Of a stretch of 64,000 nucleotides of DNA, positions 27,155 to 56,500 are shown piece after piece. The position numbers and the translations under genes were made by a program. How positions within the stretch are numbered: position 1 is the first letter of the stretch; each line of letters starts with the position of its first letter. The notes under the pieces are model-generated. The model saw nothing but the letters and a program-made list of their open reading frames with translations. It searched no databases and was not told where the DNA came from. Source of the stretch: Squalus acanthias (Eukaryota); contig CM059448.1 in NCBI GenBank assembly GCA_030390025.1, positions 10,788,001-10,852,000 of the forward strand, in the 5' to 3' direction.

Positions 27155-27169
27155 TCAGTATGGCTTCTT
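27155..27169 (-). CDS. TAPBPL: Tapasin-like exon 8, coding part KKPY* (KKxx ER-retrieval signal); exon continues to a donor after 27133
   Basis: ctcttcaacag|AAG AAG CCA TAC TGA, then 22 nt of UTR and |gtaagt. Confidence 0.75.
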   Translation of the reverse strand, partial: KKPY

Positions 27170-30100
27170 CTGTTGAAGAGATAAAAGAAGATTGGAAAAT
27201 ACTATAACATAACCTACAGAACATGTTGGCTTTAATGACCTTTAAGCTGTTCATAAACACATAGCTAAAAGATAAGGGAATAAAAAAAACCTTTATTAAA
27301 TCATACGATAGCAAAATACTGCGGATGCTGGAAATCAGATGAGACATTACATCGAGGCCCTGCCTTAAATGAATTTTATTAAATCATATTCATTTTGACT
27401 ACTTGGTTTAAATTGTTGATTCAACCTGAGCTGAACTTCAAACTCCACATCCTATCTATCAATAAAATCACCTACTTCCGCCCCCACATCATCACCTGTC
27501 TCTACCCCTACCTCACCCCCACTGCTGCGGAAGGATCTTAACCACTCCTGACTCAATTCTCAAGAGTCCTCCTCACTGGCCGCCTGCGTTTCATCTACAA
27601 CTCATTCAAAGTTCCACCACCCACATGCTGACCAGCACTAAGTTCCTCTCACCCATTAGCTCCATCTTCACGAACCTCCATTGATTTCCTGTCTCCCAAA
27701 GCATTGATTTCACATCCTCCTCATCGAATGATGCTTCTATGGACTCACCACACCCTCATCTCTGCAATCAACTCCAGTCCTACGCCCCCAGCACGTTCCC
27801 CTCAGGCCTCCTGTGCATCTTACCCTTCCCTTCGCCCCACCAACAGCAGCAGACCCATCAGCCAGCTTGGTCCTACTCCCTGAAACTCCCTCCCTAAATC
27901 TCTCTGCCTTCCTACTTTTTCCTAGCCATTATAGGCCTTCTCAAAACCCACCATGCTTTCAAAACCCACCATGCAAAACTGTGGCGGAGGGATTTCAACG
28001 CAGGCAAGTGTGAGGTCATCCATTTTGGACCAAAAAAGGATACATCCAAGTATTATTTAAATGGTGAAAAGCTAGGAACAGTGGAGGTCCAAAGAGATTT
28101 AGGAGTCCATGTACACCGATCACTAAAATGTAGTGGTCAGTTACAAAAAATAATCAAGTAGGCTAACGGAATGTTAGCCTTTATAACTAGAGGACCGGAA
28201 TATAAAGGGGAGGACGTTTTGCTACAGCTCTACAAAGTCCTGGTTAGACCACATCTGGAGTACTGTGTACAGTTCTGGGCACCGCACCTTAGAAATGATA
28301 TATTGGCCTTGGAAGGAGTGCAGCGCAGATTCATCAAAATATTACCAGGGCTCTAAGGGTTAGATTATGAGGAGAGATTACATAAACTAGGCTTGTATTC
28401 CCTGAAATATAGAAGGTTAAGGAGTGATTTGATTGAGGTTTTTAGGATTTTGAAAGGAAGCGATAGGGTAGATAGAGAGAAACTTTTTCCGTTGGTGGAG
28501 GCGTCTAGGACAAGGGGACATAACATTATAATCAGAGCCAGGCCATGCAGGAGAGAAGTTAGGAAACACTTCTTCACGCAAAAGGTGGTAGAAGTGTGGA
28601 ACTCTCTCCCACAAAAAGCGGTAGATGCTAGCTCAATTAATAATTTTAAAACTGAGATTGATAGATTTTTGCTAGCCAAGGGTATGAAGGGATATGGAGC
28701 CAAGGCAGGTAAAGGAGGTTAGGATACAAATCAGCCGTGATCTCATTGAATAGCTGAATGGCCTACTCCTGTTCCAATGGTCCCTCCTAACTCCACTACT
28801 GCTGCTTGGCACCTGTTTCCCACTCTGTGAGCACCCTTGGGATGTTTACTACCTTGATCCCTTTAGCCTTTGCTAGTCCAGGAATGCTGGGACCGACCAC
28901 AGAACCCTACTGGTGCCCCAGCTCAGGTTAGCCAATCAGCACTGAATGACCAGTTGGATATTGGAGGCTGACCAATGCTCGTGGAACCATGCAACAGCAA
29001 GAGTCTGTCAGGGGAAAAAACACAACTACACTGCCCAATATATTAAGTGATCCCCACACGTTATATCGGACTAAAATTACCTTTATCATTTTCTTACAGG
29101 TTTTCTGTGTGAGGCTTTGTGGCACTAATAAAACTCAAATTATATTGCTCTTACCTTGTTTTTTTCCATGACTGCAAAGAAAAGGATAGAGAGTCATTAG
29201 GAACTCACATCAGCACAACCATGTCATGGAGTGAACAGATAGAATATCAGTGCGAATATCACTCACAGCGCCTTTCCATTCTTTTTTTAGTGGATAAGCT
29301 AAAGAACTGGCTTCACGAGTCTTTGAGCACAAACCTTTGTTTAACTGCTGCGCTCCCACTGAGGCTTTAGACTTGAAAATAAATTGGACATTATTAGACG
29401 TCTGATGGAGGCATCTTGAGGTGAGCTTCAAACCCCAAATCATATCCATCAACAAGGCTGCCTATTTCCACCTTTGCAACAATGTCTACCTCCGTCACTA
29501 CCTCGCCTCCGATGGTGCCGAAACTCTTACCCATATCTTCGTCACCTCCAGGTTTCCCTTCTCTGTGCTGGCCACCCAAGCTCCATTCCAGTCAAGTCCA
29601 ACTTGTCCAAAATTTCAGTGCACAGATCCTTTCTGGTACGAAGCCCCTGTCCTTGCCAACATCTCCTGATTTCAAAATCCTCATCCTTGTTTACAGAATC
29701 CTCCCTGCCGCTGTCCGGTTCTGCCTCTGCAAACTCCTCCAGCCCTATGTCCCATCTCGCATCCTGCACTCTTCCAACACTGGTCTACTATGTGGCCCCC
29801 AACTCCCTCCACCCCAGCATCAGTGGCAGAGCCTTCAACCGTCTTCCTGCCCTCTTCCTAAACTCCTCTGTCCTGCTGTATCTCCCACACCTTAAAAAGT
29901 CTCCTGAAAACGTATCTCTTCACCCACATCTTCAGTCACCGTCCCTGTTTTCCAAACTCCTGCGCAGTGTCCCTTCCATCCTTAGCTGTGAAGTGCCTCC
30001 AGATATTTCACTATGTTAAAGTTTGTTGCTGATGATACCGGCTTTTTAACTCGCTGGGTTCGCTGCACCTACGTCCACCTGGTAAGCAATGTTAAAAGAA

Positions 30101-33100
30101 CCTCCTGGTCATACCATCCATGAAGCCGCTACTACTGTCGTTCTATAGGGAGAAGACCAGTTAAAGCTGCTGTAGCATAATCACATCACCACCAGCCCCT
30201 TTCACACATTCTGTTGGACCCCCACCACAACCACCTCTTAGGCAATCAGCCCAAACTATCTTCAGCAACCACAAGTGGGCTCAACGAAAGCCAACCACCG
30301 ACAGAGCATGCCAATAAAACTTGATATTATGATCTCAAACATATCATCCAATGTTCTGATGGGTCTGTGTTTTTTGCAAATAGCAAATTTCTTTGAAAAC
30401 TAATCTTGACACAGCAGCCCAACTAGATCTGTAAATCCTGTGAAACTCATAACTTCATAACATGCCTCCCGATATCTTGTTCAAAGTTACAAGCTATGAC
30501 ACATTTATAATTCTGCATTGATTTCGCTCATGGCTATTTGCTCTATCCAGTTGGGGCCTGTAGTGACATCTGTATCCCTAAAATAAAATAGCTGAGATGC
30601 TTTTAAAAGGAAACTAGATGAGTACATGAGAGAAAAGGGAATAGAAAGATATGCTGAAAGGCTGAGATGAGGCAGATGGAATGGGAGGAGACTCTTATGG
30701 AGTATAAACACCGGCACAGACGAATTGGGCCGAATGGCCTGTTTCTGTGCTGTATATTCTATGTAATTCTATGAAAGTTCTTCGCTGGTCTGATTTTCCA
30801 AATTAAACATTCGCTGGTACTGTGCTTTGCTGCGATTCTAATGATATTGAAAAGTGTTTTTACAGAGGCTAATCAACAGTGAAGGTGAATATTGTGAAGG
30901 CTGCAAAAGGAACCATCAACAGACTGTGTCACCCAATGCTGATTAACAGCACAGAACTCAGAACAGCAAATACTCACCTTTTTTCAAGTGAATCAGTAGG
31001 ATGATCACAACAGCACAGAAAAATAGGGTTATAATAGTAATTAAGATACCCAAAAGTATCTGAGGTCGTGCTGCGGGATTAAAAGAAAAAAAATCATCAG
31101 CGTCAGTGTTTTGAGACCTCTGTCACATGTAACTGCGTACATTGGAAACGGGAACTCCCCTAAAAGGAGAATGAGGAGAGCAGGAGGTTCTCCTGGTGTC
31201 CTGGCCAACACTTATCCTTCAAACCAACACCACCAAAAACTAGACAGTTTATCAATCATTTTTCACCCAATATGTTATGTGCTACATTTGTCGATATTAA
31301 ATTTGATTTGTTTACTCAGTTGCATAGCTGATCGAAATATTTAGAGTTGTCTGAACATTGAAGAAGCTTACAGTGGGTTTCTGCCTCCAAGGTCATTTAT
31401 GTTGATACAAAGCAAGGGTCCAAGCACAGACCCCTGGGATACTCCACTCGTCATCCCCTCCCCCACACCAACACTATACGTCTTACAAACACTCTTTATT
31501 TCCTACTATTTATTCATCGTCGTGTCCAGTCCCCATGTTCTACCCTGGATTCCCATGGCTTGAGTTTTGTTACAACTCTTTCTTGTTGAATCTTGCCAAC
31601 AATTTTTTAGAAAGTCCCGTTAAACTATATCATAAGGAATTCCATTGCTTTGCTTGTAATGTCCTCAAAGGAAATGTGTCAAGCAGGATCTCTCCCTTCT
31701 AAATCCATGCTAGCTGACTCTTCAGATATTACTATATAGGCCGTCCTCCAGCCTAATCCTTACAAGAGTTTCTATTATTTTATCCAGGACCTGCCATCAT
31801 CTCAGTCAGAGTTCTCTCCCTTTCCAAATGTAGGCTCATATCTTTTTTTGCTTCCAACCCTGCGGAAGAGCACAGATAGTCAATGATTTGTTCGCTAGCA
31901 TAGCAGATTGCTCAGACTTCTCAGTTCCTTGGTCCTTTTCCTGTGAGAGACGCCTTGTGTAAAGCAGCAGCTGAAACCTATCCGATAATGATATTTCCTG
32001 TTTTACTCCTATACTCTTTCTGGGTTGCTTGCCAGCTTTCCTCAGGGCATCAAGAGATATGGGGATAGGGCGGGAAAGTGGAATTGATGTAGAAGTTCAG
32101 CCATGATCTTACTGAATGGCGGAGCAGGCTCGAGGGGCCGTATGGCCGACTCCTGCTCCTAATTCTTATGTTCTCACTGTAACCCATTTCCTATATCCCT
32201 GTCAGCTCCTTTAATTACTACCGGTGTCAGCCTTGGCTCAGTGGTGGCACTGTTGCCTCTGAATCAGAAGGTCATGGATTCACTCCAGAGATCTGAGCAC
32301 GCAATCTAGGCTGACACTCCAGTGCAGTGCTGAGGGAGTGCTGAACTGTCGGAGGTGCCGTCTTTCAGATGAGACGTTAAACCGAGGGGCCCCGTCTGCC
32401 CTCTCAGGTGGATATAAAAGATCCCACGGCTGTATTCAAAGACGAAGGAGCAGAGCTCCGAAAGCTCGTAATTTCAAATAAAGCTGTTGGACTATAACCT
32501 GGTGTTGTGCGACTTCTCATTTTTGTCCACCCCAGTCCAACACCGGCATCTCCGCATCAAAGAAGAGCAGGGGAGTTCTCCCCGGTGTCCTGGCCAACAT
32601 TTATCCCTCAACCAACATCACTAAAACAGATTATTTGGTCATTATCACATTGCTGTTAGTAGGACCTTCCTGCGCACAAATTGGCTGCCGTGTTTCCTAC
32701 ATTACAACAGCAATTACAGTTCAAAGGTACTTCATTGGCTGTGAAGTGCTTTGGGATGATCTGAGGTGGTGAAAGGTGCTATATAAATGCAAATTCTTTC
32801 TTTCTTCTTTACTGAATTGCATTCATCCAAACTACCACATAAAGGTTGATATTTGTATTGTTTAAATGTTAATGTGAGAGGAAGACAGGAATCGGTCTCT
32901 CAGAAATGGCTGGGCAAGCTCATGGAGAGGAGTAGGAGACTGGCAGCAGGAGCGACCCGAGACTTGGAGGTGATTCTCACGTAGAATAAGTGTATGGTAG
33001 TGGAAGAGACCCAGGGCTTGGAGGAAACTCAAGACTCTTGTGGGGAAGAGCAGGAGATTAGAAGGGGGACACACCAGTCAAGGGAGGGAGGAGAAACAAA

Positions 33101-36100
33101 GAAAGACTTGCATTTATACAGCGCCTTTCACAACTACCGGACGTCTCAAAGTGCTTTACAGCCAATGAAGTACTTTTTGAAGTGGAGTCACTGTTGTAAT
33201 GTAGGAAACTCGGCAGAAAATTTGCGCACAGCAAGCTCCCACAAACAGCAATGTGATAATGACCAGATAATCTGTTTTAGTGATGTGAATTGAGGGATAC
33301 ATATTGGCCCCAGGACACCAGGGATAACGCCCCTGCTCTTCTTCGAAATAGTGTCATGGGATCTTTTACATCTACCTTAGAAAGCAGACGGGGCCTCGGT
33401 TTTAACGTCTCATCCGAAAGACGGCACCTCCGACAGTGCAGCACCCCCTCAGTACTGCACGAGTGTGTCAGCCTAGATTTCTGTGCTCAAGTCTCGGAGA
33501 GGTTGTCTCCGAGCCGGAATACTAACGCGGAGCCCAGTTTAACCATTGAATAGGGCTGAAAAACTGTGTCTAGGTTGCTCTTTACCAGCAGCTTTAAACA
33601 TACACGCAGGGAGGACAGAGAGTGTGGAGATCTCCCTTTATAATATTTAGGGTAATATGGAGCACTAAGAACCAGTTTGAACAAAATCAACATTGTGATG
33701 GGTCGCACTGGTTGAGCTGTAGATTCCCACTGACGGGTTGTAACCTCAAGCCCTGGCATTGCATGGCACTGGCTCTCATCCAGGGTGGTTCTCAGGAGCA
33801 CTTGGCACAACAGCTCAGTTCTCCTCGCAATGGCGCAGTGCCCCATTGTGGGGAGAAGGGAGAAAGACTGACCCATCCTCTCCTGTCAGAAGATCTTGCA
33901 GTGACATTGACAACACCCACGTGAGAATGTAGAGCCCCGAACACCACACCTAAGCAGGCGAAAGGAGAGGCTGCTGATGGAGATGGGAATTGAACTGTGA
34001 AATGGAGATACCATAGAGAGTGTAAAACTGATAGTAACAAGAGTTCCTGTAATACTTGTGTTACTAACACTTCTACACTCTCAATGGTATTTGCAAAGGA
34101 TACTGAGTATTACAAGAACTATTGGCCCAGAAATTGATCCCGGGACGCGAGAGTACGCACTGCGTACTCTCGCGTATTCCCACTCCAATTGCCGGTTTTC
34201 TGCATGCCCTGCGCATGCGCTGAAAACCGGCAATTGCTCTTTTGAAAAGGGGGCGGTTCCTCGGTGCATCGCGTGCGCGCTACAGGCTGCGCGCACGCTG
34301 TGCACTTCATGCTTTGGACGCGCAGGTAAGTACGGAAGATTTTAGAAATGTAAAAAGGAGGAGTAAGACCCACTTTTAAGAAGGTAAGTAGTGAATTAAG
34401 TATTTTTTTGAATTTTTTTTAACAGGTATATCTTTTTTAGAGACTTTAAAGACAGGTAAGTTTATTTTTATAACTTTTTAAAAGATTTTAAATTTTTTCA
34501 AAAATTTAATTTTTTATTTAAAATGGTTAATTTAATTAACTATACTTATTTTATTAATGTGATGGGTTTTTTTTTAATTTAATTGAGGTTTAGCTGTTAT
34601 TTTGGGGGGGTGTAAGATTCATAGATTTCACAGCAGGTATGTGAAACTTATGAATGGAAGATGGTGTGCTGCCATTGGCTCTAACTGAGTCACGTGATCC
34701 CACAGCTCGCACGAATTCACTACGCCGCTGGGATACGCAAGCACTGCCCAGCTGATGTCTGGAACATCAAGTTCGTGCGAGCTGGATCTGAAAAAGCACA
34801 AGCGAGGTGAGAGATCGCGGGGAAGCCTTACCCCCGCGGGAACAGAGCGAGATCAATTTCTGGGCCATTGTTTTTATTCATTCCTGGGATGTGGGAGCTC
34901 CCCCAGTGTCCTGGCCAATATTAACCCCTCAACCTAGCATCCTTTGTAAATTTTCTGAGTTGGAAATTCAGGAGAGTAACTGACACGGCCATCTCGATTC
35001 GCCCGAGGTTGGAGTGAGACGTGTCAAATTTGTGCAGCACTCAGTTTTCTCAGCTCTATCCTCCGACTGAAGGAGATTATGAGGAAACAAGGGCCTTTGA
35101 CAGGCAGAAAACTTGTACAAAAGGTGGAGCTTTGGGCCAGCGCAGGAACCAGGTTGCTTCCAAAAACTGCTCCAACATTAAGTGAATTTAGATGTTTACA
35201 CTGTATTGGAGCTGTTTCAATATTAATCCATGAGGGGAAATAAAAGACACGAACATCCTTAGGTATCCAATATTAGAAACATAGGAACAGGAGCAGGCCA
35301 TTCAGCCCCTCGAGCCTGTCCCACCATTCAATGAGATCATGGCTGATCTGCGACCTAACTCCGTATACCCGCCCAAGCCCCACATCCCTTAACACCTTTG
35401 GTTAACAAAAATCTATCAATCTCTGATTTAAAATGAACAATTGATCTAGCATCAATTGCCGTTTGTGCAAGAGTTCCAAACTTCTACCACCCTTTGTGTG
35501 TAGAAGTGTTTCCTAATTTCACTCCTGAAAGGTCTGGCTCTAATTTTTAGACTATGCCAATTAGACCTAGAATCCCCAACCAGTGGAAATAGTTTCTCTC
35601 TTATCTACCCTATCCGTTCCCCTTAATATCTTGAAAACTTCGATCAGATCACTCCTTAACCTTCTAAATTCTAGGGAATACAACCCTAATTTGTGTAATC
35701 GCTCCTCATAATTTAACCCTTGAAGTCCGGGTATCATTCTGGTAAACCTACGCTGCACTCCCTCCAAGGCCAATATATCCTTCTTAAGGTGTGGTGCCCA
35801 GAACTGCTCTCAGTGCTCCAGGTGTGGTCTAACCAGGGCTTTGGTTAATCCATATTGACTCTGTGAAACACCTTGGAACTATTTTAAGTGAACAGTATCA
35901 TAGGATTCTCACCATTGCTTACCTTCTACATTTACTTGGACGTAACGTTTGATCGGTTTCTCCAAGCTGGCATGCTCCACTCGACAGGTGTACGTAACGC
36001 CGTTGTCCCTGAGGGAGGCCGTGAACCGGAAGTAACTGGTCAAGTTGTAGGTGCCGTCCGTGTTCTGCTTGTGGGGCGAGAAGACAACGTTGGTCATGTA

Positions 36101-39100
36101 GACGGGCAGCAGGTGCCCCTCGCCCTGCTGCCGCAGCCACTTCATCGTTACGTCAAGTGGGTAATACCGCCTCGCCTCACATGCCAGCTTCTGCTCGTCC
36201 CCTTCCTTCAGGGAAAGTGAATCGGGGTGCATTAAGACAACGGGAGACTCTACAAAGAAAGCAACAAATGACTTTGTCAAAACAGGTCACGACAACTGGA
36301 CGTACATTCATGATTTACAGGCCTGCCGACGCTTGGGCTTTGCTGCTGTCAATCCCTTTAATTGTAATTAAATTGGAATAATGCAGTCTTCCACACGGGA
36401 CCCGAGTGTGAACATGTCGCTGTAGCAACCAATAACCAACATGGGAACTGCCAATCTAAAAAAAAAATCCCCTTTAAATAATTTTTCCTGCACAAATCTT
36501 TTTTTTTATAGTAATATTTTCCCATACAATCACATGCTAAATACATATACTCTTAAAAATGCTGGTGAGAAGAGCATGTGTTTAATGTACTGGGGGGAAC
36601 GTGGTGCTCTGGAGTATCAGGACTCAGACTGTAGCGCACATCTGTGAAGCTTCAAATGTATTTTATTGGCTGTGAAAGTGCTTTGGGAGGTCATGAAAGG
36701 TGCTAATAATAACATAAGAAATAGGAGCAGGAGTCGGCCAATCGGCCCCTCGAGCCTGCTCCGCCATTCAATAAAATCATGGCTGATCTGATCTTGGCCT
36801 CAACTCCACTTTCCTGCCCGCTCCCCATAACCCTTGACTCCCTTATCGTTCAAAAATCTGTCTATCTCCACCTTAAATATATTCAATGACTCAGCCTCCA
36901 CAGCTCTCTGGGGTAGAGAATTCCAAAAATTCACGACCCTCTGAGAGAAGAAATTCCTCCTCATCTCCATTTTAAAAGGGCGCCCCCTTATTCTGAAACT
37001 ATGCCCCCTAGTTCTAGATTCCCCCACTAGGGGAAACATCCTCTCTGCATCTACCCTGTCCAACCCCCCTCAGAATCTTATATGTTTCAATAAGATCACC
37101 TCTCATTCTTCTAAACCCCAGTGAGTATAGGCCCAACCTGCTCAACCTCTCCTCGTAAGACAACCCTTTCATCTCCGGAATCAACCTAGTGAACCTTCTC
37201 TGAACTGCCTCCAATGCAAGTATATCTTTCCTTAAATAAGGAGACCAAAACTGCACGCAGTACTCCAGGTGTGGTCTCACCAACGCCCTGTACAGTTGTA
37301 GCAAGGCTTCCCTACTTTTATACTCCATCCCTAAATAAATGCAAGTTCTTTCTTCTGCCAACCTTTTGCTGAATCCTCTGTCTCTACTGTTCTCCTTGTT
37401 TTAGTGTGGTCAGCAAATCCGATGTTTGGTTTCCAAGTAATTTATGTAGATGTGAAAAAAAACAGGGAACCATCCCTCAGGGATTTAACTTCACACCTAC
37501 CCTCAGATCTGACATTACACCTCTCATAAGGACTAGCTCAGCTATAGCTGTAAAACACCCTGCTACAATAAATGGGAGTAACCTTGTCCTCAGCTGAGCT
37601 GGATTCCAACCATGCTGATTGCTGATATTCAGGGTGAAGATTTTGCCAGGTACTAATTGTAACTACCTGCACTGTACACTGTTAAAATGCACATATTCAG
37701 CGGGATTTTTTTTTAAATTCGTCCATGGGATGTGGGCGTCGCTGGCAAGGCCAGCATTTATTGCCCATCCCTAGTCGCCCTTGGGAAGGTGGTGGTGGGC
37801 CGCCTTCTTGAACCTGCTGCAGTCCGTGTGGTGAAGGTACTCCCCACAGTGCTGTTAGGGAGGGAGTTCCAGGATTTTGACCCAGCGACGATGAAGGATC
37901 GGCGATATACTTCTAAGTCAGGATGGTGTGTGACTTGGAGGGGAACTGGAGGTGGTGGTGTTCCCATGCGCCTGCTGCCCTTGTCCTTCTAGGTGGAAGA
38001 GGTCGCGGGTTTGGGAGGTGCTGCCGAAGAAGCCTTGGCGAGTTGCTGCAGTGCATCTTGTAGATGGTACACACTGCAGCCACGGTACCACCTGGTGGTG
38101 GAGGGAGTGAATGTTTAAGGTGGTGGATGGGGTGCCAATCAAGCGGGCTGCTTTGTCCTGGATGGTGTCGAGCTTCTTGAGTGTAGACTGAAATAATCAA
38201 TCCAGGTACTACCTCTGGAGCAGAGACCCTGGTTTATTTCTGGAGACAGCAAGATCCGAACTGTCCTTTCAATTTTCTGCTAATTTCCACACTGTTCCGT
38301 TACTCAAATAAATTCGAATCGTCATTTCCCCTGACCCGTTTGTTTTCAGTACCGGTTAATTCATCAGCATCAGTATCTTACCCAAAATCTCCAAGTTGAT
38401 GGTGTGCGTTCCGAAGAGTGGAGGGACATATACGGAACAGGTGTAGGATCCCTCATCTTTCATGCCAACATTTCTTATGCGGATGGAAGCGTTCCCATTC
38501 TTGATCTGGTCCATGAACACTTCAATCCCTTTCTCGATGTGTTCAACCTGCTGATGTCGCCCATTGTAGGAGAACAATTTCTTCTTGGTCCCTTTGTGCT
38601 GATATCGCCAGTCAATGTTGAAGTCCGTGCTGTGATCAATTTTGTAGCCACAGTCCAGAATCAGGTCTTGCTTCAGTTTGGTTCTGATCATTGGGGTGCT
38701 GGTGCGGACAATGTAGCTCACTAACAAGGACAAAGGAACAGCCATTATCTTGCATTTCACACCAGTTATTTACTGTTAATAACTCAGGTAAAAACACAAA
38801 TTGTATTTTCTTCATAAGCTCACCATTTCAAATATCTAGTCATACGCTGTTTATGCCACATAGTTTTTGGTTCTTTTGCTTTATTATTGGAATAGAGGGT
38901 TTATGACACTCAATCTAAGTATTAATAAACAAATTAGTAACTGCATGCATATATGTATAAAGAAAATAAGTGTTAATAGACAAGGTAATTGGCCCAGAAA
39001 TTGATCTCGCTCTGTTCCCGCGGGGGTAAGGAGCAGGCGCGATCTCTCACTCCGCGTTGGCTTTTTCAGATCCAGCTCGCACGAACTTGATGTTCCAGAC

Positions 39101-42100
39101 ATCAGCTGGGCAGTGCTTGCGTATCCCACCGGCGTAGTGAATTCGTGCGAGCTGTGGGATCACGTGACTCAGTTAGAGCCAATGGCAGCACACCATCTTC
39201 CATTCATAAGTTTCACATACGTGCTGTGAAAGCTATGAATCTTACACCCCCCCAAAATAACAGCTAAACCTCAATTAAATTTTTTTAAAAAACCATCACA
39301 TTAATAAAATAAGTATAGTTAAATAAATTAACCATTTTAAATAAAAAATTAAATTTTTGAAAAAATTTAAAATCTTTTAAAAAGTTATAAAAATAAACTT
39401 ACCTGTCTTTAAAGTCTCTAAAAAAGATATACCTGTTAAAAAAAATTCAAAAAAATACTTAATTCACTACTTACCTTGTTAAAAGTGGGTCTTACTCCTC
39501 CTTTTTCCATTTCTAAAATCTTCCGTCCTTAGCTGCGCGTCCAAAGCATGAAGTGCACAGCGTGCGCGCAGCCTGTAGCGCGCACGCGATGCACCGAGGA
39601 ACCGCCCCCTTTTCCAAAGACCAAGTGCCGGTTTTCAGCGCATGCGCAGGGCATGCAGAAAACCGGCAATTGGAGAGAGAATACGCGAGAGTACGCAGTG
39701 CGTACTCTTGCGCAGCGGGATCAATTTTTGGCCCAATAAGTAAATTGACTATAATCTTAGAGTGCTGAAAAAATATGTATTATGGACAATATTTGCCTTT
39801 CATGGAACCAGACTTATAAGGGAGGTTCACTAGACAGATAAGGGACCCGTGCACCACAATATCATCTCTTGAAATGGACAGTAACAGAAGGGGAGGGATG
39901 GCATGAGATTTGAGGAGATAGAGGACCTATCAGGGGAGAAAGGGGAGCTCCACAGGCTTGAATTGAAAGAAATGGTATAAGAAAGGGACACCAGCAGGGA
40001 TTAAGTGTAGAAGTTAACAAAGGAGGATTCAAGTAATTCTAGGGGACACTCAGAGGCTAAACAGGCCAGGAAGCACGGCTGGAGAGGTTGCAGATAACTC
40101 TTACCGTGACTTTTGCCCAAGGCATAAACGGGGTAGTATGACTCTTAATTATACCTTGTAAAGTGCTGCTCAAGATATAGTAATTGTGTTGATCCTTGCT
40201 TGTGCTGAATAAACATTTAATCACTGCCGCCAATACAGGTCAATGTCGAATCATTTGGAATCAAAGATCTCACAGAGAGATTCTTACACGATAGCAAAAT
40301 ACTGCAGATGCTGGAAATCCGAAATAACAACAGAAAACGCTGGAAAAACTCAGCAGGCCAGGCAGCATCCGTGGAGAGAGAAACAGAGTTGACGTTTCAG
40401 GTCGATGACCTTTCATCAGAACTGGGAAGAGCTGGAAATCAAATAGATTTAAGGCCAGGGTAAAGCTGGGAAAAGGGGGAGGGGATAAAGGAACAAAGGA
40501 GGAGATGAAGAGACATTAAGAGACATTAAGAGATATGCAAGGCTAGAGGTGGTGTTAATGTGACAGATTAAGGCTGAATGAAGTGTGAAATCTACTGGCA
40601 GAATGAAGGACAGCTGCCAGCTTCTAGGAGGAAAAAAAAGGTGGGGGGGACAAATAAAAGGGTGGATAAAATAAAATATAAATGTGATTGGAGCTGAGGT
40701 TATGATCTAAAATTGTTGAACTCGATATTGAGTCCAGAGGGCTGTAGCGTGCCTAAACGAAAGATGAGGTGCTGTTCTTACAAGAGATTCTTACACTCTG
40801 TCCGAACTTATACTGGGCTGGTTAGCTTCCTACTGGCATTAGAACGTTACCTTGAACTAACAGAGTGTCTGTACTGCCAATGGATGAATCTTCATCGTCA
40901 GTTTTTGTTTTACTGTTCTCAGCCTTCGGGCTATCGGGTGCTTCTATCTTCCTCATGAAGCTGGTTACGGTGAATCTGCCATTTCTGTGCTTTACAGACA
41001 CTGTGAACCATATGTCCTCACTGGACTCCTCACCCTGATGTGGCCAGGGCACGTGGATGCCAAAGGTAGAATGCCTGCTAATTTCACAATCCAATTCGTC
41101 AGGTTCCCCATCCACATACTGGAAAATGTCTAATGAAGACTCTGTAAATAAAAGGAAAGATTCACACACTAATTAGACAGCAAGTTAACAGAAGATGGTG
41201 CAGATGTCTTACATAAAGAAGGGTTCCAATACTAAACATGCAATCTCTCTGAGCCTCCTAAGTAGTAAGATTCTGCAAATTCTTCTGTTGTACCTTGTGA
41301 TTTAAAGAAAAACAACTCGGGCATTCATATATTGAAATATCACTCTTACAACCTGAGGTGTAACCTTTTAAACTGAAAATCTACCTCTCCCAATCAACTG
41401 CATCAACCATTACCAATTCCATTTGACCAGCTATTTTTAAAAGACTGACTTCGAACCAGTGCATTCTGACTCTCCCAAAAGACTTCTTCAAACTAATCAC
41501 TGGCAATTAAGTCCAATTTTTGACTGAAACAAGTTGCCCTTACTGAGCAATCCTCAGGCATGGAGGCGTGCATATAAATCTCTGTTACAATTTCAGATGT
41601 TGCACAGAACTGTTTTCTCTCTCAATGGATTCTTAGCCATACCTTGTCCTCTATGATCCAGAAAGAACTTGCATTTCTGTAGCGTCTTTCACGACCTCAG
41701 GACGTCTCAAAGCGCTTTGCAGCCAATGAAGTACTTTTGAAGTGGAATCACTGTTGTAATGTGGGAAACGCAACAGCCAATTTCTGTACAGCCAGGTCCC
41801 ATGAACAGCAATGTGAAAATGACCAGATAATCTGTTTTTGTTATGTTGGTTGCAGGAGAAATATCGGCCAAGACACCAGGGATAACTCCCCTGCTCTTCT
41901 TCAAAATAGTGCCATGGCATCTTTTACGTCCACCTGAGAGCGGACGGGGCCTCGGTTTAACTTATCAACTGAAAGACGGCACCTCCGACAGTGCAGCACT
42001 CCCTCAGCACTGCACTGGAGCGTCAGCCTGGATTTTGTGCTTAAGTCTCTGGAGTGGGACTTGAACCCACAACCTTCTGACTCAGAGGCGAGTGTGCGAC

Positions 42101-45100
42101 CCACTGAGAGCCACGCCTGACACACATACAGCTGACAGAAGCTGCACTCTTATTGATAATCTGTCCTTCACGTGACTTGAGAACAAACAACTACCCTTAC
42201 TTGCAGGATTTACTGGAGTTCTCCCCGGTGTCCTGGCCAATATTTATCCCTCAACCAAACATAACAAAAACAAACAGATTATCTGGTCATTATCACATTG
42301 CTGTTTGTGGGAGCTTGCTGTGCGCAAATTGGCTGCCACGATTCCCACATTACAACAGTGACTGCACTTCAAAAAGTACTTCATTGGCTGTAAAGTGCTT
42401 TGAGACGTCCGGTGGTCATGAAAGGCGCTATATAAATGCAAGTCTGTCTTTACCTGGAATGATAGCATTCTCTTTGGATTGGCAGAATATTAAAATACGG
42501 AGCAGAGCTTTAGCAGGCTAAGTAAAGCAACTCAGAATTTTTATTTATAATCAAATGGAAAGTGAAGCACAAATAGAATTTGGTAAATACTACTGAGTAT
42601 CAATATTAAACATAAATGTAATGAGCAAACTCCATAATGGGTTAATTATCCTCTTTTGGGAAATGTCTTTGGGGAAACAATAACCTCTGATTGATGAATT
42701 CTGCACCTTTCAGTCTCGGTCAGTTGCACTTGAATCACGATGAATACAGTGTAAGCCTCACATTACAGAGACACCACCATCTGACCAACTCTCAGAACTA
42801 AGAACAATTGGACGATAAAACCAATGCAGTATTTTAAACCCATTGGGGCACTGGAGCATCCATCCTCAGAAATCTCCACTGCTTCCTTCCCTGGCAAGAG
42901 CAAATAAAAGGACTTCCCAAACCATTTTGAACGATTACCCTGAGTATAGGAGGTGCTCGCCCCCGAGAATTAATTTACTGATGTGCTTGATCTGTTCACA
43001 CTACCTTTAACTTTAAAAGTAATGGCCTCCTCATTTGTATTGACATCACCAAAGAGCAGTAATGCCTTCCTCTTGATGGTTGTGGGCCCAAACACGTGAG
43101 TCTCTTCACTTTGTTTCTCTTCCAGAAACATGCAGTCCAACCTTCTGTATGGGACCACGTGTCCATTCTGTGCCCGCACAATTCCTTTAAAAAAAAAGGA
43201 AAAGAGGAGTCGAAAATAAAGCTTTTAACGCAGAATGCATACCATCACTCTGCACATTACAGTGAAGAAATTTCTCCTCATCTCAGGCTTAAATGGCCAA
43301 CCCCTTTATTCTGTGAATGTGACTCCGTGTACTAGATTCCCCAGCCAGGGGAAACATTTTCCCAGCATTAACCTTGTCAAGCCCCTTAAGAATTTTATAT
43401 GTTTCAATTAGATCACCTCTCATTCTTCTAAACTCTAAGGAATATAGGCCTAGTCTACTCAATCTCTCCTCATAAGGCAATCCCCTCAGGAACCAGTCCA
43501 GTGAACCTTCGCTGCACTCCCTCTAAGGCAAGTATGTCTTTCCTTAGGTAAGGAGACCAGAACTGTGCATAATACTCCAGGTGTGGCCTCACCAATGCCC
43601 TGTATAATTGTAGTAAGACTTCTTTACTCTTATACTCTAATCCCTTTGTAACAAAAGCTAACATACCATTTGCTTTCCTAATTGCTTGCTGAAAAATCTA
43701 GTAACTGTCATGGTCATTTTCCTAGTGCCAGCCCACAAATTACCCAATTTATTGAATTCCATTATCACAACTTGCTACAGTGGGATTGAACTCACAACCT
43801 CACGGTTACCAGTCTGGTACCATGTCCGTTAAGCTACTGTACCCACTGATAGTCCAAAACTAGGGGCCATGAGTATCAGACAGTCACCAATAAATCCAGC
43901 AGGGAATTCAGGAGGAATTTCTTTACCCAGAGAGAGTGGTGAGAATGTGGAACTCCCTACCACAGGGAGTGGTTGAAGTGAATAGTATAGATGCATTTAA
44001 GGGGAGGCTAGATAAGATTATGAGGGAGAAGGGAATAGAGGGTTACGCTGATAGATTTAGATGAGGAAAGACGGGAGGAGGCTGGAGTGGAGCATAAACG
44101 CCGGCATAGACCAGTTGGGGCAAATGGCCTGTTTCGGTGCTGTACCTTCTATTTAATTCTATGTAACACTAACTAATGTCAAGACCAATAGAAATACAAA
44201 GGAGAGCTCCCTCCAGTGGCTGACTGGTTAAATGCTCCCTTGTTATCATACTAAACCCAAGACCATAAAGTGCCTGGGCAGTAATTGGGATGATAAAACT
44301 ACCCTCAGAGTCTCTAAGATAGTGAGGAGAAAAATCAACAAGAGTTTCTGCTAATGATTGCTATCTATTGCTCCCGGGTGGACAGCAACAGGCTCAGCTG
44401 CACTGGTTAAATAGCCATCAATACTCTCTGTCTAGGCTCACATATAAAGAATGGGCATTTGGCAGATACCAGGAGGTTGCTGATGTCCATAGATCAATCC
44501 CCAGAAAGGAAGTCACCACCTTCAGGAGATTCAAGAAGAATTTGTAAAACTAAATAAGAAGGAATTGTTATTGGTAAACGTTGCATTTCCCACATTACAA
44601 CCAGGGACTTCACTTCAAAAGTATTTCATTGGCTGTAAAGCGCTTTGAGACGTCCGGTGGTCGTGAAAGGCGCTATAGAAATGCAAGTCTTTCTGTCTTT
44701 CTATCCATCATGCTGGAGTACGTTAGTACTGATGAATGGAGCATTTTCCTTTTTTTCAACCCATGGCTTCAACAAACACCCCCAGATGGGAAATGGAAGG
44801 CAAATGGTACGCTGGCCTTCATTACAAGAGGATTTGAGTACAGGAGTAAAGAAGTCTTACTCCAATTATATAGGACCTTGGTGAGACCATACCTGGAGTA
44901 CTGTGTACAATTTTGATCTCCTTACCTAAGGAAGGATATACTTGCCATAGAGGGAGTGCAACGAAGGTTCACGAGATTGATTCCTGGGATGGTGGGACTG
45001 CCGTACGAGAAGAGATTGAGTAAACTAGGCCTGTATTCTCTTGAATTCAAAAGAATGAGAGGGGATCTCAGTGAAGCATACAAAATTATTACAGGGCTTG

Positions 45101-46902
45101 ATAGGATGGATGCTGGGAGAATGTTTCCCTTGGCTGGGAAGTCTAGAGCCAGGGGCCACAGCCTCAGGATAAAGGGTAGGCCATTCAGGACTGAGATGAG
45201 AAGAAATTTCTTCACACAGAGGGTGGTGAATCTTTGGAATTCTCTACCCCAGAGGGCTGTGGAGGCTCAGTCATTGGGTATATTCAAAACAGAAGTCGAT
45301 AGATTTCTGACTAGTAAAGGCATCAAGGGATATGGCGATAGGGTCGGTGAATGGAATTGAGGCAGATCAGCCATGATCTCATTGAATGGCGGAGCAGGCT
45401 CGACGGGCCGAATGGCCTACTCCTGCTATTTCTTATGTTCTTATTAGATATAGCAATGAGTCAGAGGGAGATTAAAGCTCCCACGACATCGACCCAATAA
45501 AAAGGTTTATTCATAACCTCAGAAAAGCACAAGTGTAAAATTTCCATTCCCCACAGCAGCCAATCTCATGGGCCGCGATTTCGGCAACTGAGGCGGATCT
45601 GGGGCGGCCGGGGTCGGGAGCTCCTGACCCGCTGTCAATCTTTTCTATTTTGACAACTGACCCGCCTCCGATCCCGCCCTCTCAGCACCGGCAAAATTCC
45701 GGCCATGGATTCTCTGAGTGAAATTCCCAATTTAATCCTAAATTATGGTGAGTGCTCATGGCCAAATACATTTGCTCTAGGACCTTTATAGAAAGGAAAA
45801 AACTTTATCCCATCAATCTTCATTAGATTGGAACTCATTCTCTTAGAAAGTGTTTATGATTTTAATAGACAAAAGAACCTGCCTTGATATAACACCTCAT
45901 CACATTGCTCAGAAACACCCCCACTTTACCTCCTATGCAATGAACGGCTTCGAACCAATGTCATTATGTAGTCGCATGTTGCAGCAATTTTGCGCACAGC
46001 AAGATCTCACAAACAGCAATGAGGTGAATGACCAGATAATGACCAGTTTTTGGTGATGCTGGTTAAGGGATAAATGTTGGCTATGACATCAGGGAGAACT
46101 CTCTGTTCTTCTTTAAATAATACTGTGGGATCTTTAACATCTAGCTGAATCTCTGGAAGGGGGATAGTACATGAAAGTGAAGTTGAGGTTGAAGATCAGC
46201 CATGATCTTATTGAATGGCAGAGCAGGCTCGAGGGGTACTCCTACTCCCAATTTATGTTCTTATGATCTAAAGGAGTTTAGTTTTATTTCTCATGTAAAG
46301 CACAGCGCCTGTGACAGTGCAGCACTCCTGCAGCACTGCACTCTGGTGCCCCAGAGGGGATAGTACAACGCCACTGTGCCAAGCTGATCTAAAAATACCA
46401 AGGGAAATCTTTACAAACACGTTTACAAGGTCATAACACATAACAACCAGAAGATTTCTTACCCCATTGCCCCTTTTCTAATGCATTTTACGGGGAACAT
46501 TGTATGCGGGTTTCTAATCTCACCTCACCCGTGGAAAGGGGTGGGTCCCAAAGACCGTGTTATTCTCCCATCATTGACACCCGTGGGCCAATGGTGTTCT
46601 GACTTGCCCTTGATGAAGTGTTTTTATATTCAGTGTGGTTCTTTTGGAGGCTATCACTAGGAGCCTAATGGTGCACTTGTACTGCCCAAATCAACGCTTC
46701 ATTTTATCCTGTGCTTGCTCTATCTAGAAGGATCCCATGAGCATTTTTAGTTTCATTTTCAAAACATCCCTTCGGCGGCCGATTTCAAACACAAATACAA
46801 TCATTAAATAAATGTCAGTTCTGCTCCTTTAGCCTGGAAGCGTCTGATCGTCTTACCGGCAGCAAGAATCCAAAAATGCAAAAGGAATATCTTCAAAAAC
46901 AT
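27155..46902 (-). CDS. TAPBPL: Tapasin-family protein (tapasin-related/tapasin-like), complete spliced CDS of 8 exons, 1308 nt, 435 aa
   Basis: Exons 46902-46857, 43184-43005, 41141-40851, 38720-38382, 36249-35923, 31070-30978, 29171-29155 and 27169-27155 all have GT-AG boundaries and join in frame. Architecture is signal peptide/N domain/IgV/IgC1/TM/KKPY*. The motif DWRYQHKG matches tapasin EWRRQHLG and TAPBPR EWRLQHKG. The exact paralogue is not resolved, so the symbol is family-level. Confidence 0.9.
27978..28780 (+). mobile_element. CR1 LINE 3' fragment
   Basis: [25 protein letters not shown]. Confidence 0.88.
29155..29171 (-). CDS. TAPBPL: Tapasin-like exon 7, 17-nt cytoplasmic micro-exon (V)MEKNK
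   Basis: ccttttctttgcag|TCATGGAAAAAAACAAG|gtaaga; phase 1->0 bridges the TM exon to the last coding exon. Confidence 0.72.
30978..31070 (-). CDS. TAPBPL: Tapasin-like exon 6, transmembrane segment ([30 protein letters not shown])
   Basis: Strong acceptor tttttcttttaatcccgcag|, donor AAG|GTGAGT, 93 nt, phase 1-1, ~23-aa hydrophobic run. Confidence 0.9.
32223..32810 (+). mobile_element. tRNA-derived Deu-domain SINE (SacSINE1/AmnSINE1-like)
   Basis: A box TGGCTCAGTGG, core GAGGTGCCGTCTTTCAGATGAGACGTTAAACCGAGG, tail TATAAATGCAA-TCTTTCTT. Confidence 0.8.
34124..34866. mobile_element. MITE copy 2 (inverted relative to copies 1 and 3), in intron 5 of the tapasin-like gene
   Basis: Perfect 16-bp TIRs GGCCCAGAAATTGATC...GATCAATTTCTGGGCC, ATT/ATT TSD. 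Confidence 0.9.
35277..35842 (-). mobile_element. CR1 LINE 3' fragment
   Basis: ORF 35567..35773 [14 protein letters not shown]. Confidence 0.88.
35923..36249 (-). CDS. TAPBPL: Tapasin-like exon 5, IgC1 domain
   Basis: [17 protein letters not shown]...[10 protein letters not shown]...[10 protein letters not shown]; 327 nt, phase 1-1, ctttgtag|AG and AAG|GTAAGC. Confidence 0.95.
36711..37331 (-). mobile_element. CR1 LINE 3' fragment
   Basis: ORFs 37014..37361 and 36800..37063. Confidence 0.88.
38382..38720 (-). CDS. TAPBPL: Tapasin-like exon 4, IgV-like domain
   Basis: [25 protein letters not shown]; 339 nt, phase 1-1, ttgttag|TG and G|GTAAGA. Confidence 0.95.
38991..39734. mobile_element. 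MITE copy 3, in intron 3 of the tapasin-like gene
   Basis: Same TIRs, near-identical to copy 1, flanks ATT/AAT. Confidence 0.9.
40290..40782 (-). mobile_element. Penelope-like fragment with a 14-bp TSD
   Basis: Homologous to 13167-13600; AGAGATTCTTACAC duplicated at 40276-40289 and 40783-40796. Confidence 0.75.
40851..41141 (-). CDS. TAPBPL: Tapasin-like exon 3, N domain part 2 (LDCEISRH...VPWP...WFTVSV)
   Basis: Acceptor tatttacag|AG, donor AAG|GTAACG, 291 nt, phase 1-1; CEIS motif of the tapasin family. Confidence 0.9.
41661..42123 (-). mobile_element. Deu-domain SINE, full length
   Basis: B box GGTTCAAGTCC and the same core and tail. Confidence 0.82.
43005..43184 (-). CDS. TAPBPL: Tapasin-like exon 2, N domain part 1 (RLDCMFLEE...RKALLLF...ITFKVK)
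   Basis: Acceptor ttttttaaag|GA, donor AAG|GTAGTG, 180 nt, phase 1-1; resembles tapasin IECWFVED..RPGALLL. Confidence 0.88.
43262..43690 (-). mobile_element. CR1 LINE fragment
   Basis: ORFs 43470..43664 and 43289..43480. Confidence 0.85.
44795..45443 (+). mobile_element. CR1 LINE 3' fragment
   Basis: ORF 44956..45360; ttcttatgttctta tail. Confidence 0.88.
45571..45704. mobile_element. Short MITE
   Basis: TIR GGCCGCGATTT / AAATTCCGGCC, ATG/ATG flanks. Confidence 0.6.
46857..46902 (-). CDS. TAPBPL: Tapasin-like exon 1, signal peptide [15 protein letters not shown](G)
   Basis: ATG at 46902, hydrophobic 15-mer, donor G|GTAAGA in phase 1 matching exon 2; ISRE about 65 nt upstream. Confidence 0.88.
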
Positions 46903-46967
46903 TTTGTGTTTTCTTACTCTGCGCGCCGCTGCCCTGGATCCCTGCTGCTCGCAGGCTGGTCAGATAC

Positions 46968-47037
46968 ACTTTCGGTTTCGTGAATCCGATGCGGAAGTTT
47001 CTGGTAATTTTCAGTTTGAAGGAGCATCAGTTTCGGG
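46968..47037 (-). promoter_or_regulatory. Interferon-responsive proximal promoter of the tapasin-like gene: ISRE, Ets, GAS-like and IRF half-sites
   Basis: CGAAACCGAAAGT (46968-46980, minus) fits GAAANNGAAA; GCGGAAGT 46991-46998; TTCTGGTAA 46999-47007; AAACTGAAAA 47008-47017 (minus). Confidence 0.7.
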
Positions 47038-53125: not shown

Positions 53126-53593
53126 TCATTTGCTTTGATTTGCTCGATTCTTCTGGGTAGCTTCTTCAGCTTTTCTCTTTCGCCACTCACAAATGTCTGC
53201 AAAGTCACAAGTCCGACATTTCCACGCCTCCTCAATATCCACCCCCTTGGCCTCCCTCTGGCCCTTCCAGAAGGAGCAATAATGCTTCAGCTCACTTTTA
53301 ACCCACTCCTCTTCAAAGCGCACCACTTCTGTTCCGATCACAGAGGCATCTGCTTGGTAACAGTATTCTATCTTCATGGTGTCGACGGTGGGGAGCTCCG
53401 CGTACGTCAGGTTCAACAACATTAAATCCAGAAGGTCACCGAATGTGTTTATGGTAAACCCCGCCTTCTGGGCATGCACCATAACCTCTAACCCAAAGGT
53501 CTGCTCTGTCCGTAAGTGAAGCTGGTGAGTGATGGTGTCCTTGTTCAGTTGGCCTTTGATCATAGCCTCAAAGAGGAGTTTGTATATACTGAC
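53126..53593 (-). CDS. EXO5: EXO5 exon 6 with the C-terminal CxxCxxxxxC Fe-S motif and stop codon
   Basis: ttttattatcag|GTC; 468 nt to TGA; within ORF 53126..53650. Confidence 0.95.
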   Translation of the reverse strand, partial: VSIYKLLFEAMIKGQLNKDTITHQLHLRTEQTFGLEVMVHAQKAGFTINTFGDLLDLMLLNLTYAELPTVDTMKIEYCYQADASVIGTEVVRFEEEWVKSELKHYCSFWKGQREAKGVDIEEAWKCRTCDFADICEWRKRKAEEATQKNRANQSK

Positions 53594-56500
53594 CTGATAA
53601 TAAAAGGGATCTAGTTTTACTAGATGATAGCTATCCAATCTGTGTAACACAGAGACAACATCACTCCAACATCTGCTTGTTATTCATTGCAGATACTAGA
53701 GCTCATTACAGGTTCCCTGGTTTTGCTGCATAGATTGCTCATGGGCTATAAAGCACGAAACAAAGTGACGTAACAGCAACCCGCAACTTCTTCCCAATTG
53801 GACAGTAGCAAGATCACGTCCCAAAGTGTTTTGTCACTCAATTTGCTGGACATGTGATTTATACAGAACACAACAGCACCAAGAAATAAATACTTGCATT
53901 TAAATAGCAGCTTACGTTGTTGAAACATCTCAGAGGATTTCACTTATTTTTTTTTTTTAAAGAGTGCAAGGACTATTAGGCAGGCAAATACGACAGCCAT
54001 TCTGCAGCAGTAACATCCCACAAACAGTAATGAGAAATTGGTGGAGGGAGGAATATTGGACAGTGTGACAAAAATGAAGCAGTATTTGAATCAGGTAGCT
54101 GCCTAATTCAGTAACGATACTGAAGTGTTTAAAAGCCAGCAAATGATACAAATGTTAGGAGTTTTTTCTATTGGTTTCCAAGGTTACGGGCTTGAGAGAG
54201 AAACTGAGCCACATATTTCAAATACATACACAGTGTAAATGGTTCAGTTATGTGTATAACAGCCAATTATTTTTGAATCCAAGTGTCAAGTCATTTAAAT
54301 CCAACAAGTCCTAGCAACCGATCGATGGATATCAAACCCTGTAAATACCGTGTGGAGCTTTATCAAACCAATTGGAATCTTCACAGAAAGATACGGTAGA
54401 GTACCTAGCTCTTGCTAGAAAAGATTACAAGAAAGAAAAGAACTGCATACATAAAAGTTATCTATAAAAGAACGTCTTACGGTATAGATTGTTTCCTTTT
54501 ACTGCTTTCCTTTCAAGAATCTAAATAATAACATTTCAACTGTGTATATTATACTATTATTATAGAATAGCTTGTTCATAGTTTGATTAATAAATTCTTT
54601 TAATAAACCTAAAACGAGGTCTGAGGTGATGCTCTGGCGCTTTTGAAGAACCATCTTGCGGAGACAATAAGATCATTTCTAGTAGCTAAACAATTAACAG
54701 GGAGTTTGTTCTGTTTGTTATCTTGGGAATATTACTGAACACTTATTTAGATAAGTGAAGATACTCTCAAAGGCATGGGGAGTTGGGAATCACCTTTGAG
54801 ATTGATCTAAAACCATAGAATCCAAAAGATCCAGAGCAAGAAGGGGAGAATGGACCCCAAAAACATAATAAAGATAAGAGATTTTTTTTGAAGATAGCCA
54901 TAAGATTTTTAATGTCCAACTGAACCATTGGTCCAAGCAGCTGGTGCCTCAGTTTGACATCTCATCTGAAAGATGGCACCTCCAACAATGCAGTACCTCC
55001 ACATTACTGCACTGGACTTGTTTGTGCGTTCAAGTCCTGATGGGAGGCTTGAACCCAAACATCTTCTGACCCAGAGGTAAGAGAGCTGCCAAATAAGCCA
55101 GACAGAAAAGTCCATGAAAATACTCCCACAACGTGAACTTCGAATTCGCTCTTAAGTACAAAGGCTCCATGGACATTGTTGCACTGTAGAGTTAGTGCTG
55201 TGTAGATATGACCCTACTATAGAGCGGTACAAAACGTAACCAGTGATATGCACTTTACCAATGCAACAGGGGATGGCCGTCCAATGAGGTCTAGGAATGA
55301 CCAAGTCATTTTTGTTCCGAACATTAAGAAACATTATACAAAAGCATGATGCCAATATTTTAATAACCAATTTAAGTGAGTCAGTACAAAATTGATTCAT
55401 TCCAAATGATTCTTGCCCCACGCACTTACTTGTAAGTGATGACTCTTTCTTTGGGCTGCACTGGGAAATGTTCGGTGACCACGTGTTTTCAGTTCACGCA
55501 ATTCCAGTTCGCCCTTGGAATTATAGCACAGCTCGTCAATAACACCAACCAGGAAAATCCCCTCCAGCTCTCCAAACACCGGCAGCTCTCGTACACGCTC
55601 TCCTATACAACCACAGCAATTCATTAGATATACCAAATTCCGCTGCTTCATCAATGACCTTCCCTCCAACATAAGGTCAGAAATGGGGATGTTCACTGAT
55701 GACTGCACAGTGTTCAGTGCCATTCACAACTCCTCAGATAATGAAGCAGTCCATGCCCGCATGCAACAAGACCTGGACGACATTCAGTCTTGGGCTGCTA
55801 AGTGGCAGGTAATATTCGCACCATACAAGTGCCAGGCAATGACTATCTCCAACAAGCGAGCGTCTAACCACCGCCCCTTAACATTCAATGGCATTACCAT
55901 CGCCGAATCCCCCACTATCAACATCCTGGGGGTCACTATTGACCAGAAACTTAACTGGACCAGCCACATAAATACTGTGGCAACAAGAGCAGGTTAGGGG
56001 CTAGGTATACTGTGTCTCATCTCCTGACTCCCCAAAGCCTTTCCGCCATCTACAAGACAGAAGTAAGGAGTGTGATGGAATACTCTCCACTTGCCTGGAT
56101 GAGTGCAGCTCCAACAACACTCAAGAAGCTCGACACCATCCAGGACAAAGCAGCCCGCTTGATTGGCACCCCATCCACCACTTTAAACATTCATTCCCTC
56201 CACCACCGGCGTACCGTGGCAGCAGTGTGCACCATCTACAAGATGCACTGCAGCAACTCGCCAAGGCTTCTGCGGCAGCACCTCCCAAACCCGCGGCCTC
56301 TTCCACCTAGAAGGACAAGGGTAGCAGGCGCATGGGAACACCACCACCTCCAAATTCCGCTCCAAGTCACACACCATCCTGACTTAGAAGTATATCACCG
56401 TTCCTTCATCGTCGCTGGGTCAAAATCCTGGAACTCCCTCCCTAACAGCACTGTGGGAGTACCTTCACCACACGGACTGCAGTGGTTCAAGTCAGCAGCT

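Follow-up and report, generated by a model that had tools for sequence, protein, structure and literature searches.

The window analysed here, a stretch of 64,000 nucleotides of Squalus acanthias DNA, carries on its minus strand a tapasin-family gene that runs from an ATG at 46902 to a TGA at 27155, with EXO5 lying about 6.2 kb upstream on the same strand. Joining of eight exons yields a 1308-nt open frame that codes for 435 residues plus the stop, and all seven introns are of the GT-AG type. We refer to the gene as shark TAPBPL, after the third lineage of the tapasin family; the human gene symbol TAPBPL encodes TAPBPR and differs from third-lineage TAPBPL. The features are:

53126..58700 (start boundary approximate), minus strand: EXO5, at least four coding exons, three with Pfam PF09810 (Exo5) and a fourth near 57075
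46968..46979, minus strand: match to the IRF-E/ISRE consensus within CpG-rich sequence, 66-77 nt before the ATG
46857..46902, minus strand: exon 1, signal peptide (aa 1-16), with ATG, GT donor and hydrophobic N-terminus
43005..43184, minus strand: exon 2, N-domain; holds Cys33 and a putative editing loop spanning aa 34-55, with V46-F47 at its tip
40851..41141, minus strand: exon 3, remaining N-domain with Cys94, without a free Cys of the C95, C94 or WFTC type
38382..38720, minus strand: exon 4, IgV domain (Pfam V-set, E 7.7e-14), with the TN6 hairpin D209/R211/Q213, K215, sequon N249, T266 (TN5 site) and T277 (Q261/Q272 site)
35923..36249, minus strand: exon 5, IgC1 domain (Pfam C1-set, E 6.4e-13), with K346 (R333/R335 site), D350 (D337 site) and sequon N354
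30978..31070, minus strand: exon 6, transmembrane (TM) helix without Lys or Arg and with Cys413 (hydropathy and motif count)
29155..29171, minus strand: exon 7, 17-nt micro-exon of the cytosolic tail that sets the frame for the last exon (AG/GT sites)
27155..27169, minus strand: coding part of exon 8, 15 nt, KKPY-stop, at once KKxx and KxKxx

An earlier note on this DNA had described a 435-aa product with a DWRYQHKG motif, an NAS glycan site, a KKPY end, six luminal Cys and a Lys-free TM segment with a single Cys. All of these were recovered on the minus strand, and the eight-exon model and its joined translation confirm them: DWRYQHKG occupies residues 209-216, the NAS sequon lies at 249, the C-terminus reads KKKPY, the luminal Cys are at 33, 94, 196, 267, 309 and 374, and Cys413 lies in the membrane. 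Exon 3 likewise holds no free Cys of the C95, C94 or WFTC type. A second sequon that had been overlooked (N354, NLT) is present in 13/15 chondrichthyan rows, and the TM Cys, found in 12/14 covered chondrichthyan rows only, is not a family-wide trait. The hydrophobic span is Lys-free and extends by hydropathy over residues ∼398-423, while the TM helix predicted in the structure model of the Heterodontus orthologue covers 398-429. The signal-peptide cleavage site and the disulfide pairing of the six luminal Cys are presumptive assignments of ours.

A query with exon 4 returned 16 proteins, of which 14 were named, every one from cartilaginous fish, and the window protein is colinear with these 14 at 59-82% identity. 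Twelve of the 14 end in KKKPY; of the other two, one stops before the TM segment and the second is predicted with another tail. As the matching tails come from independent gene models, they back the 17-nt and 15-nt last exons, and judged by this comparison the gene model is sound, both tiny exons included. Alternative tails (skipping of exon 7, retained introns, an upstream acceptor) were rejected, because each loses the dilysine, unlike 12/14 orthologue models. Skipping of exon 7 (29155-29171) would shift the frame and yield a 13-residue tail without dilysine, a possible route to a non-retrieved form. Separately, exon 3 contains an in-frame internal GT donor (41034-41032, minus strand) whose use would delete 61 N-domain residues, and an annotated Hemiscyllium isoform X2 (row P0009) has exactly that junction.

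The earlier note had also named EXO5 as the neighbour, and the Pfam PF09810 matches on three exons upstream on the same strand bear this out. The coding region of human EXO5 is a single exon. A reverse-transcriptase-like fragment lies immediately before one EXO5 acceptor. On the downstream side, the 150 longest of 218 low-repeat frames between 1 and 27200 were scanned against Pfam, with two sub-threshold matches and no gene above the cut-off, and no MHC gene appeared among the Pfam-scanned frames of the window. In 5/5 species compared, the TAPBPL orthologue and tapasin sit on apparently separate contigs, an indirect sign of a location outside the MHC. A literature search outside most subscription journals found no paper treating exo5 together with tapasin. 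By self-comparison, about 33% of the window consists of repeats, among them a ∼700-bp element with near-identical copies in opposite orientation at ∼34120-34870 (intron 5) and 38990-39740 (intron 3), part of which is also found near 4270-4620. Decayed LINE-like frames (endonuclease- or reverse-transcriptase-like by eye) occupy 47343-49521, directly upstream of the promoter.

The promoter stretch is rich in CpG (observed/expected 1.16 at 46750-47000), and its IRF-E match, scored with the consensus pattern of the literature, is the sole one in the window. When the 200 nt upstream were shuffled, 18 of 20000 local shuffles contained a match, and 21 of 100 shuffles of the whole window contained one somewhere, figures to be read with the fact that the pattern was chosen after looking. 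GAS-like 9-mers were discarded, as their 73 matches in the window are too common to carry meaning. In salmon, TAPBPL genes are reported to be induced by IFN-gamma and by virus (PMC7573153, PMC12234341), the rise under IFN-gamma amounting to 1.5-3 log2 (PMC7573153).

The third tapasin lineage was named TAPBPL by Grimholt (2018; PMC5824609), who described it from bony fish, frogs, turtles, birds and opossum and its loss in placentals; the TAPBPL alignment given there contains no cartilaginous fish. In the profile set out in that paper, TAPBPL retains the MHC-I contacts and the glycan site, often carries an ER motif, and has neither C95 nor the TM Lys; the hybrid feature set put forward in the earlier note is mostly this published profile. 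To place the shark gene we retained, from a profile search with at least 150 listed matches (mostly multi-Ig proteins), only those of tapasin-like shape. In the resulting 43-row tree the window protein falls inside a 29-row TAPBPL clade (100/100), separate from TAPBP (six rows) and TAPBPR (eight rows), and among the members of this clade are rows P0036 and P0065, which correspond by eye to the TAPBPL sequences of Xenopus and chicken in Text S4 of PMC5824609. A second tree on the IgV and IgC domains (40 rows, with 10 redundant named rows left out) again resolved three clades, each with chondrichthyan members, TAPBPL being supported by an SH-aLRT value of 97. When four distant Ig-family rows served as the root, the three clades could not be put in order, and long-branch warnings arose. 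An ESM Atlas search returned just one tapasin-related cluster besides generic Ig clusters.

The gene is thus the shark orthologue of TAPBPL, a placement we hold to be practically certain and one that upholds the suggestion of a third tapasin-like lineage distinct from both tapasin and TAPBPR. That it is instead a misread classical shark tapasin or TAPBPR has next to no probability: the names that databases give to such proteins ('tapasin-like', 'tapasin-related protein(-like)') lend themselves to it, but the window protein shares no more than 26-31% identity with nine chondrichthyan tapasins, against 59-82% with the TAPBPL orthologues, and 24-26% with TAPBPR (26% for Heterodontus TAPBPR), and the separate clades of the 43-row and 40-row trees refute either identity. 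Moreover, sharks possess the other two genes. A query with the nearest tapasin retrieved a named Callorhinchus tapasin, further chondrichthyan tapasins and the Heterodontus TAPBPR, and according to the supplement of PMC10751288, tapbp lies within the MHC of white shark and sawfish (it was not found in catshark), while both species have a separate TAPBPR gene on another chromosome than the MHC. Since sharks hold all three lineages, shark TAPBPL is no stand-in for a missing tapasin. Compared over one set of six chondrichthyan taxa, TAPBPL and tapasin are conserved to about the same degree, with TAPBPL showing the higher identity in 12 of 15 pairs.

The window protein has the whole family architecture of N-domain, IgV, IgC1 and TM segment with the six core Cys. 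The extra N-domain Cys that Grimholt put forward to mark the lineage corresponds to Val123 and occurs in 0/14 chondrichthyan, 6/8 ray-finned and 1/8 tetrapod TAPBPL rows. It is also absent from the frog, turtle and opossum rows of the alignment in PMC5824609, and as it is not universal there we do not treat it as lineage-defining.

The Cys, TM and tail features differ in how well they separate the three lineages. Although the missing C95 had been taken to indicate independence from ERp57, this argument is weak, because C95 is absent from 23/23 named non-mammalian tapasins as well (one unnamed tapasin row carries a Cys at this position) and is thus no family separator outside mammals; five of nine chondrichthyan tapasins have the same six core Cys and no more. 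Nor does the IgV glycan site serve as a distinguishing mark, since several TAPBPR rows also have an IgV sequon. C94, found in 9/9 named TAPBPR rows and not in the window protein, is a real difference. In the membrane, the G-x-x-K/R motif occurs in 21/23 tapasins (newt tapasins P0191 and P0192 being without the Lys/Arg), in 0/9 TAPBPR rows and in 0/14 TAPBPL rows, the window protein included. Because this tapasin motif is absent, shark TAPBPL can fairly be supposed to act independently of TAP, as does TAPBPR, which has no charged TM residue and does not bind TAP (PMC5296336); the proposal of TAP independence made in the earlier note is accordingly a reasonable one.

The same note had proposed retrieval to the ER, which the tails make a reasonable expectation. 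A PY end is found in 30 of 38 TAPBPL rows, the other eight being truncated or different gene models. All 30 have Lys at -3, 29 of them conform to KKxx or KxKxx, and of the 12 without Lys at -4, 11 have it at -5; a dilysine tail occurs in one of nine TAPBPR rows. With the -3 Lys and the C-terminus as the determinants of COPI binding (PMC3521961), the TAPBPL tail appears to fit the COPI rules. We consider it quite unlikely that the protein belongs to an alternative peptide-loading complex in which it would contact TAP and an ERp57 paralogue non-covalently or in some other way. Grimholt speculated on such a complex for teleosts (PMC5824609), and a missing C95 is compatible with ERp57 contact given that none of the 23 named non-mammalian tapasins has it. 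Against it stand the missing tapasin TM signature, a TM segment that varies freely among TAPBPL rows, and the failure of TAPBPR, likewise without a charged TM residue, to bind TAP (PMC5296336).

We then compared the MHC-I-contact surface, taking the roles of contact residues from PMC6307860, PMC10040737 and PMC9956121 and mapping them by alignment to the tapasin and TAPBPR chains; for many rows, several tetrapod TAPBPL rows among them, the taxon was read from tree position. The TN6 core (tapasin E185/R187/Q189), in the form acidic-x-R-x-Q/E, is present in 15/15 chondrichthyan and 2/2 lobe-finned fish TAPBPL rows, its Arg in 5/9 ray-finned rows, and it is lost in tetrapod TAPBPL (acidic 0/11, basic 1/12). 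Chondrichthyan TAPBPL further keeps the E72 site (14/14), the D337 site (15/15) and a basic residue at the R333 site (14/15). Two other sites have changed. The Q261/Q272 site is Gln in 32/32 named tapasin and TAPBPR rows and in 0/15 chondrichthyan TAPBPL rows, and the TN5 site, I/L/V in the same 32/32, is aliphatic in 5/15; the window protein has Thr at both. Of five editor patch positions it therefore keeps three (D209, R211, Q213), whereas T266 and T277 differ, so that the MHC-I contact set is retained in part. In tapasin, Q261A and L250K impair function (PMC10040737).

The loop after Cys33 has 22 residues, compared to 20 in TAPBPR, 16 in human tapasin and 18-21 in most non-mammalian tapasins, length differences that make its alignment unsure. 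Residue 47 sits nine before the strand anchor, the same register as TAPBPR L30, and is hydrophobic in 14/14 covered chondrichthyan, 2/7 ray-finned and 1/7 tetrapod TAPBPL rows. Tapasin, TAPBPR and chondrichthyan TAPBPL share residue class in 57 columns, of which 48 stay at ≥75% in tetrapod TAPBPL and only two, both of TN6, fall to ≤10%; as most of the 57 are core residues, the tetrapod TN6 contrast is suggestive and amounts to no formal test. Since tetrapod TAPBPLs are conserved despite this loss, the function of the lineage as a whole may not need the TN6 surface. Nine residues (T101, D201, H202, V271, L274, E301, K306, P434, Y435) are fixed in TAPBPL from sharks to marsupials and not in tapasin or TAPBPR, and may mark a partner surface peculiar to TAPBPL.

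These data bear on whether shark TAPBPL edits peptides at all. It could be a chaperone without real catalytic editing, or one whose clients are non-classical class I or other MHC-like molecules, a reading we judge rather unlikely. The change of the TN5 and Q261/Q272 sites across the fish TAPBPL lineage, the TAPBPL-only invariant residues (T101, D201, H202, V271 and L274), which point to a surface of its own, the apparent lack of linkage to the MHC in 5/5 species and the known action of TAPBPR on MR1 (PMC9956121) all speak for it; the loop tip and the core hairpin, however, are kept in all cartilaginous-fish rows.

Structure prediction was carried out on the Heterodontus orthologue (row P0003, 82% identical), standing in for the window protein, with a 52-row alignment; a 10-row alignment had given a pLDDT of 35.3 and was discarded. 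The model (pLDDT 88.5, pTM 0.78) matched tapasin best (Z 26.9, rmsd 6.4 over 342 aligned residues; Z 26.1, rmsd 3.1 over 312), followed by TAPBPR (Z 23.4, rmsd 3.6 over 311) and B7-H6 (Z 16.8), so that the window product, a type I membrane protein, is predicted to adopt the tapasin fold. In a PDB sequence search with the shark TAPBPL profile, the V-C1 part scored about equally against B7-H6 (E 5.5e-30) and TAPBPR (E 1.4e-28), with human tapasin a long way behind (E 3e-11). This match, together with the persistence of tetrapod TAPBPL copies without TN6, could point to a conserved role unrelated to MHC loading, as a B7-H6-like ligand or a chaperone of another Ig-family client. We regard such a role as very unlikely: TAPBPL has the full tapasin N-domain and, in the model, the tapasin fold, its constrained dilysine tail speaks against a surface ligand, and B7-H6 groups close to the tapasin family as a whole (PMC13262535), which makes the likeness a family trait.

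Taken together, the features read from the gene and its relatives suggest that shark TAPBPL is probably an interferon-inducible, ER-retrieved, TAP-free class I chaperone and editor. Interferon would switch on the gene via the IRF element, and the dilysine tail would engage COPI and keep the protein in the ER/ERGIC. For want of the tapasin TM motif it would not dock on TAP, and for want of C94 it would form no UGT1 bridge of the TAPBPR type. The IgV hairpin and the IgC1 contacts would cradle peptide-receptive MHC-I/b2m, and the N-terminal loop, placing Phe47 at the F pocket, would stabilise empty molecules and favour peptide exchange. The protein would in this way act alongside the peptide-loading complex as a second checkpoint, resident in the ER and free of TAP, with a class I clientele that is probably narrower than that of tapasin, or different, because two interface positions have changed. 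Stand-alone editors from other species serve as peptide-exchange reagents (PMC9956121). We add, as a tentative and somewhat doubtful extension, that early jawed vertebrates may have had three class I editors (TAP-bound tapasin, Golgi-going TAPBPR and ER-retrieved, TAP-free TAPBPL), of which sharks would keep the third functional, whereas tetrapod TAPBPL, naturally mutated at TN6, would have given up class I editing in favour of another client prior to the placental loss. Shark TAPBPL would on this view be a stand-alone editor with an allele range of its own.

The TAPBPL lineage and most of its feature list are already published, and orthologues are in RefSeq under loose names; new here are the retention of the TN6 core in cartilaginous-fish TAPBPL and its loss in tetrapods, the hydrophobic loop tip, and the IRF element. 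In a literature search outside most subscription journals and theses, no paper turned up that deals with chondrichthyan TAPBPL, with TAPBPL function or with the tetrapod TN6 loss. As the gene is already in databases, the gain is its placement and a testable prediction, not the discovery of a new system. The question of what TAPBPL does, raised as open in PMC9586880, is thereby sharpened into a direct test, for which the cartilaginous-fish orthologue is the one to use, since it keeps the MHC-I hairpin and the loop tip, unlike tetrapods. Because tetrapod TAPBPLs lack both, studies confined to chicken or opossum could overlook the ancestral activity.

Compared with known systems, shark TAPBPL shares with tapasin the fold, the dilysine tail, the TN6 core, the IgC contacts and a layout of eight coding exons, three of them for TM and tail (PMC4008236), but tapasin has the TM G-x-x-K/R, whereas shark TAPBPL has Thr at the L250 and Q261 sites and apparently lies outside the MHC. 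With TAPBPR it has in common the fold, the absence of a TM Lys, the long N-terminal loop, a hydrophobic residue at the L30 register and the EWRLQHKG-like hairpin; it differs from TAPBPR in having no C94 and in its dilysine tail, which one of nine TAPBPR rows also has. B7-H6 (NCR3LG1) resembles it in the V-C1 pair (27-28% identity, Z 16.8) but is a surface ligand without the tapasin N-domain. Closest is the TAPBPL of Grimholt, with which it shares the clade, the KPY tail, the lack of a TM Lys and of C95 or C94, the VPPL(F/Y)G stretch, the IgV sequon and a location outside the MHC, and from which it differs in its second sequon, in the missing extra N-domain Cys and in the TN6 core that the tetrapod members have lost.
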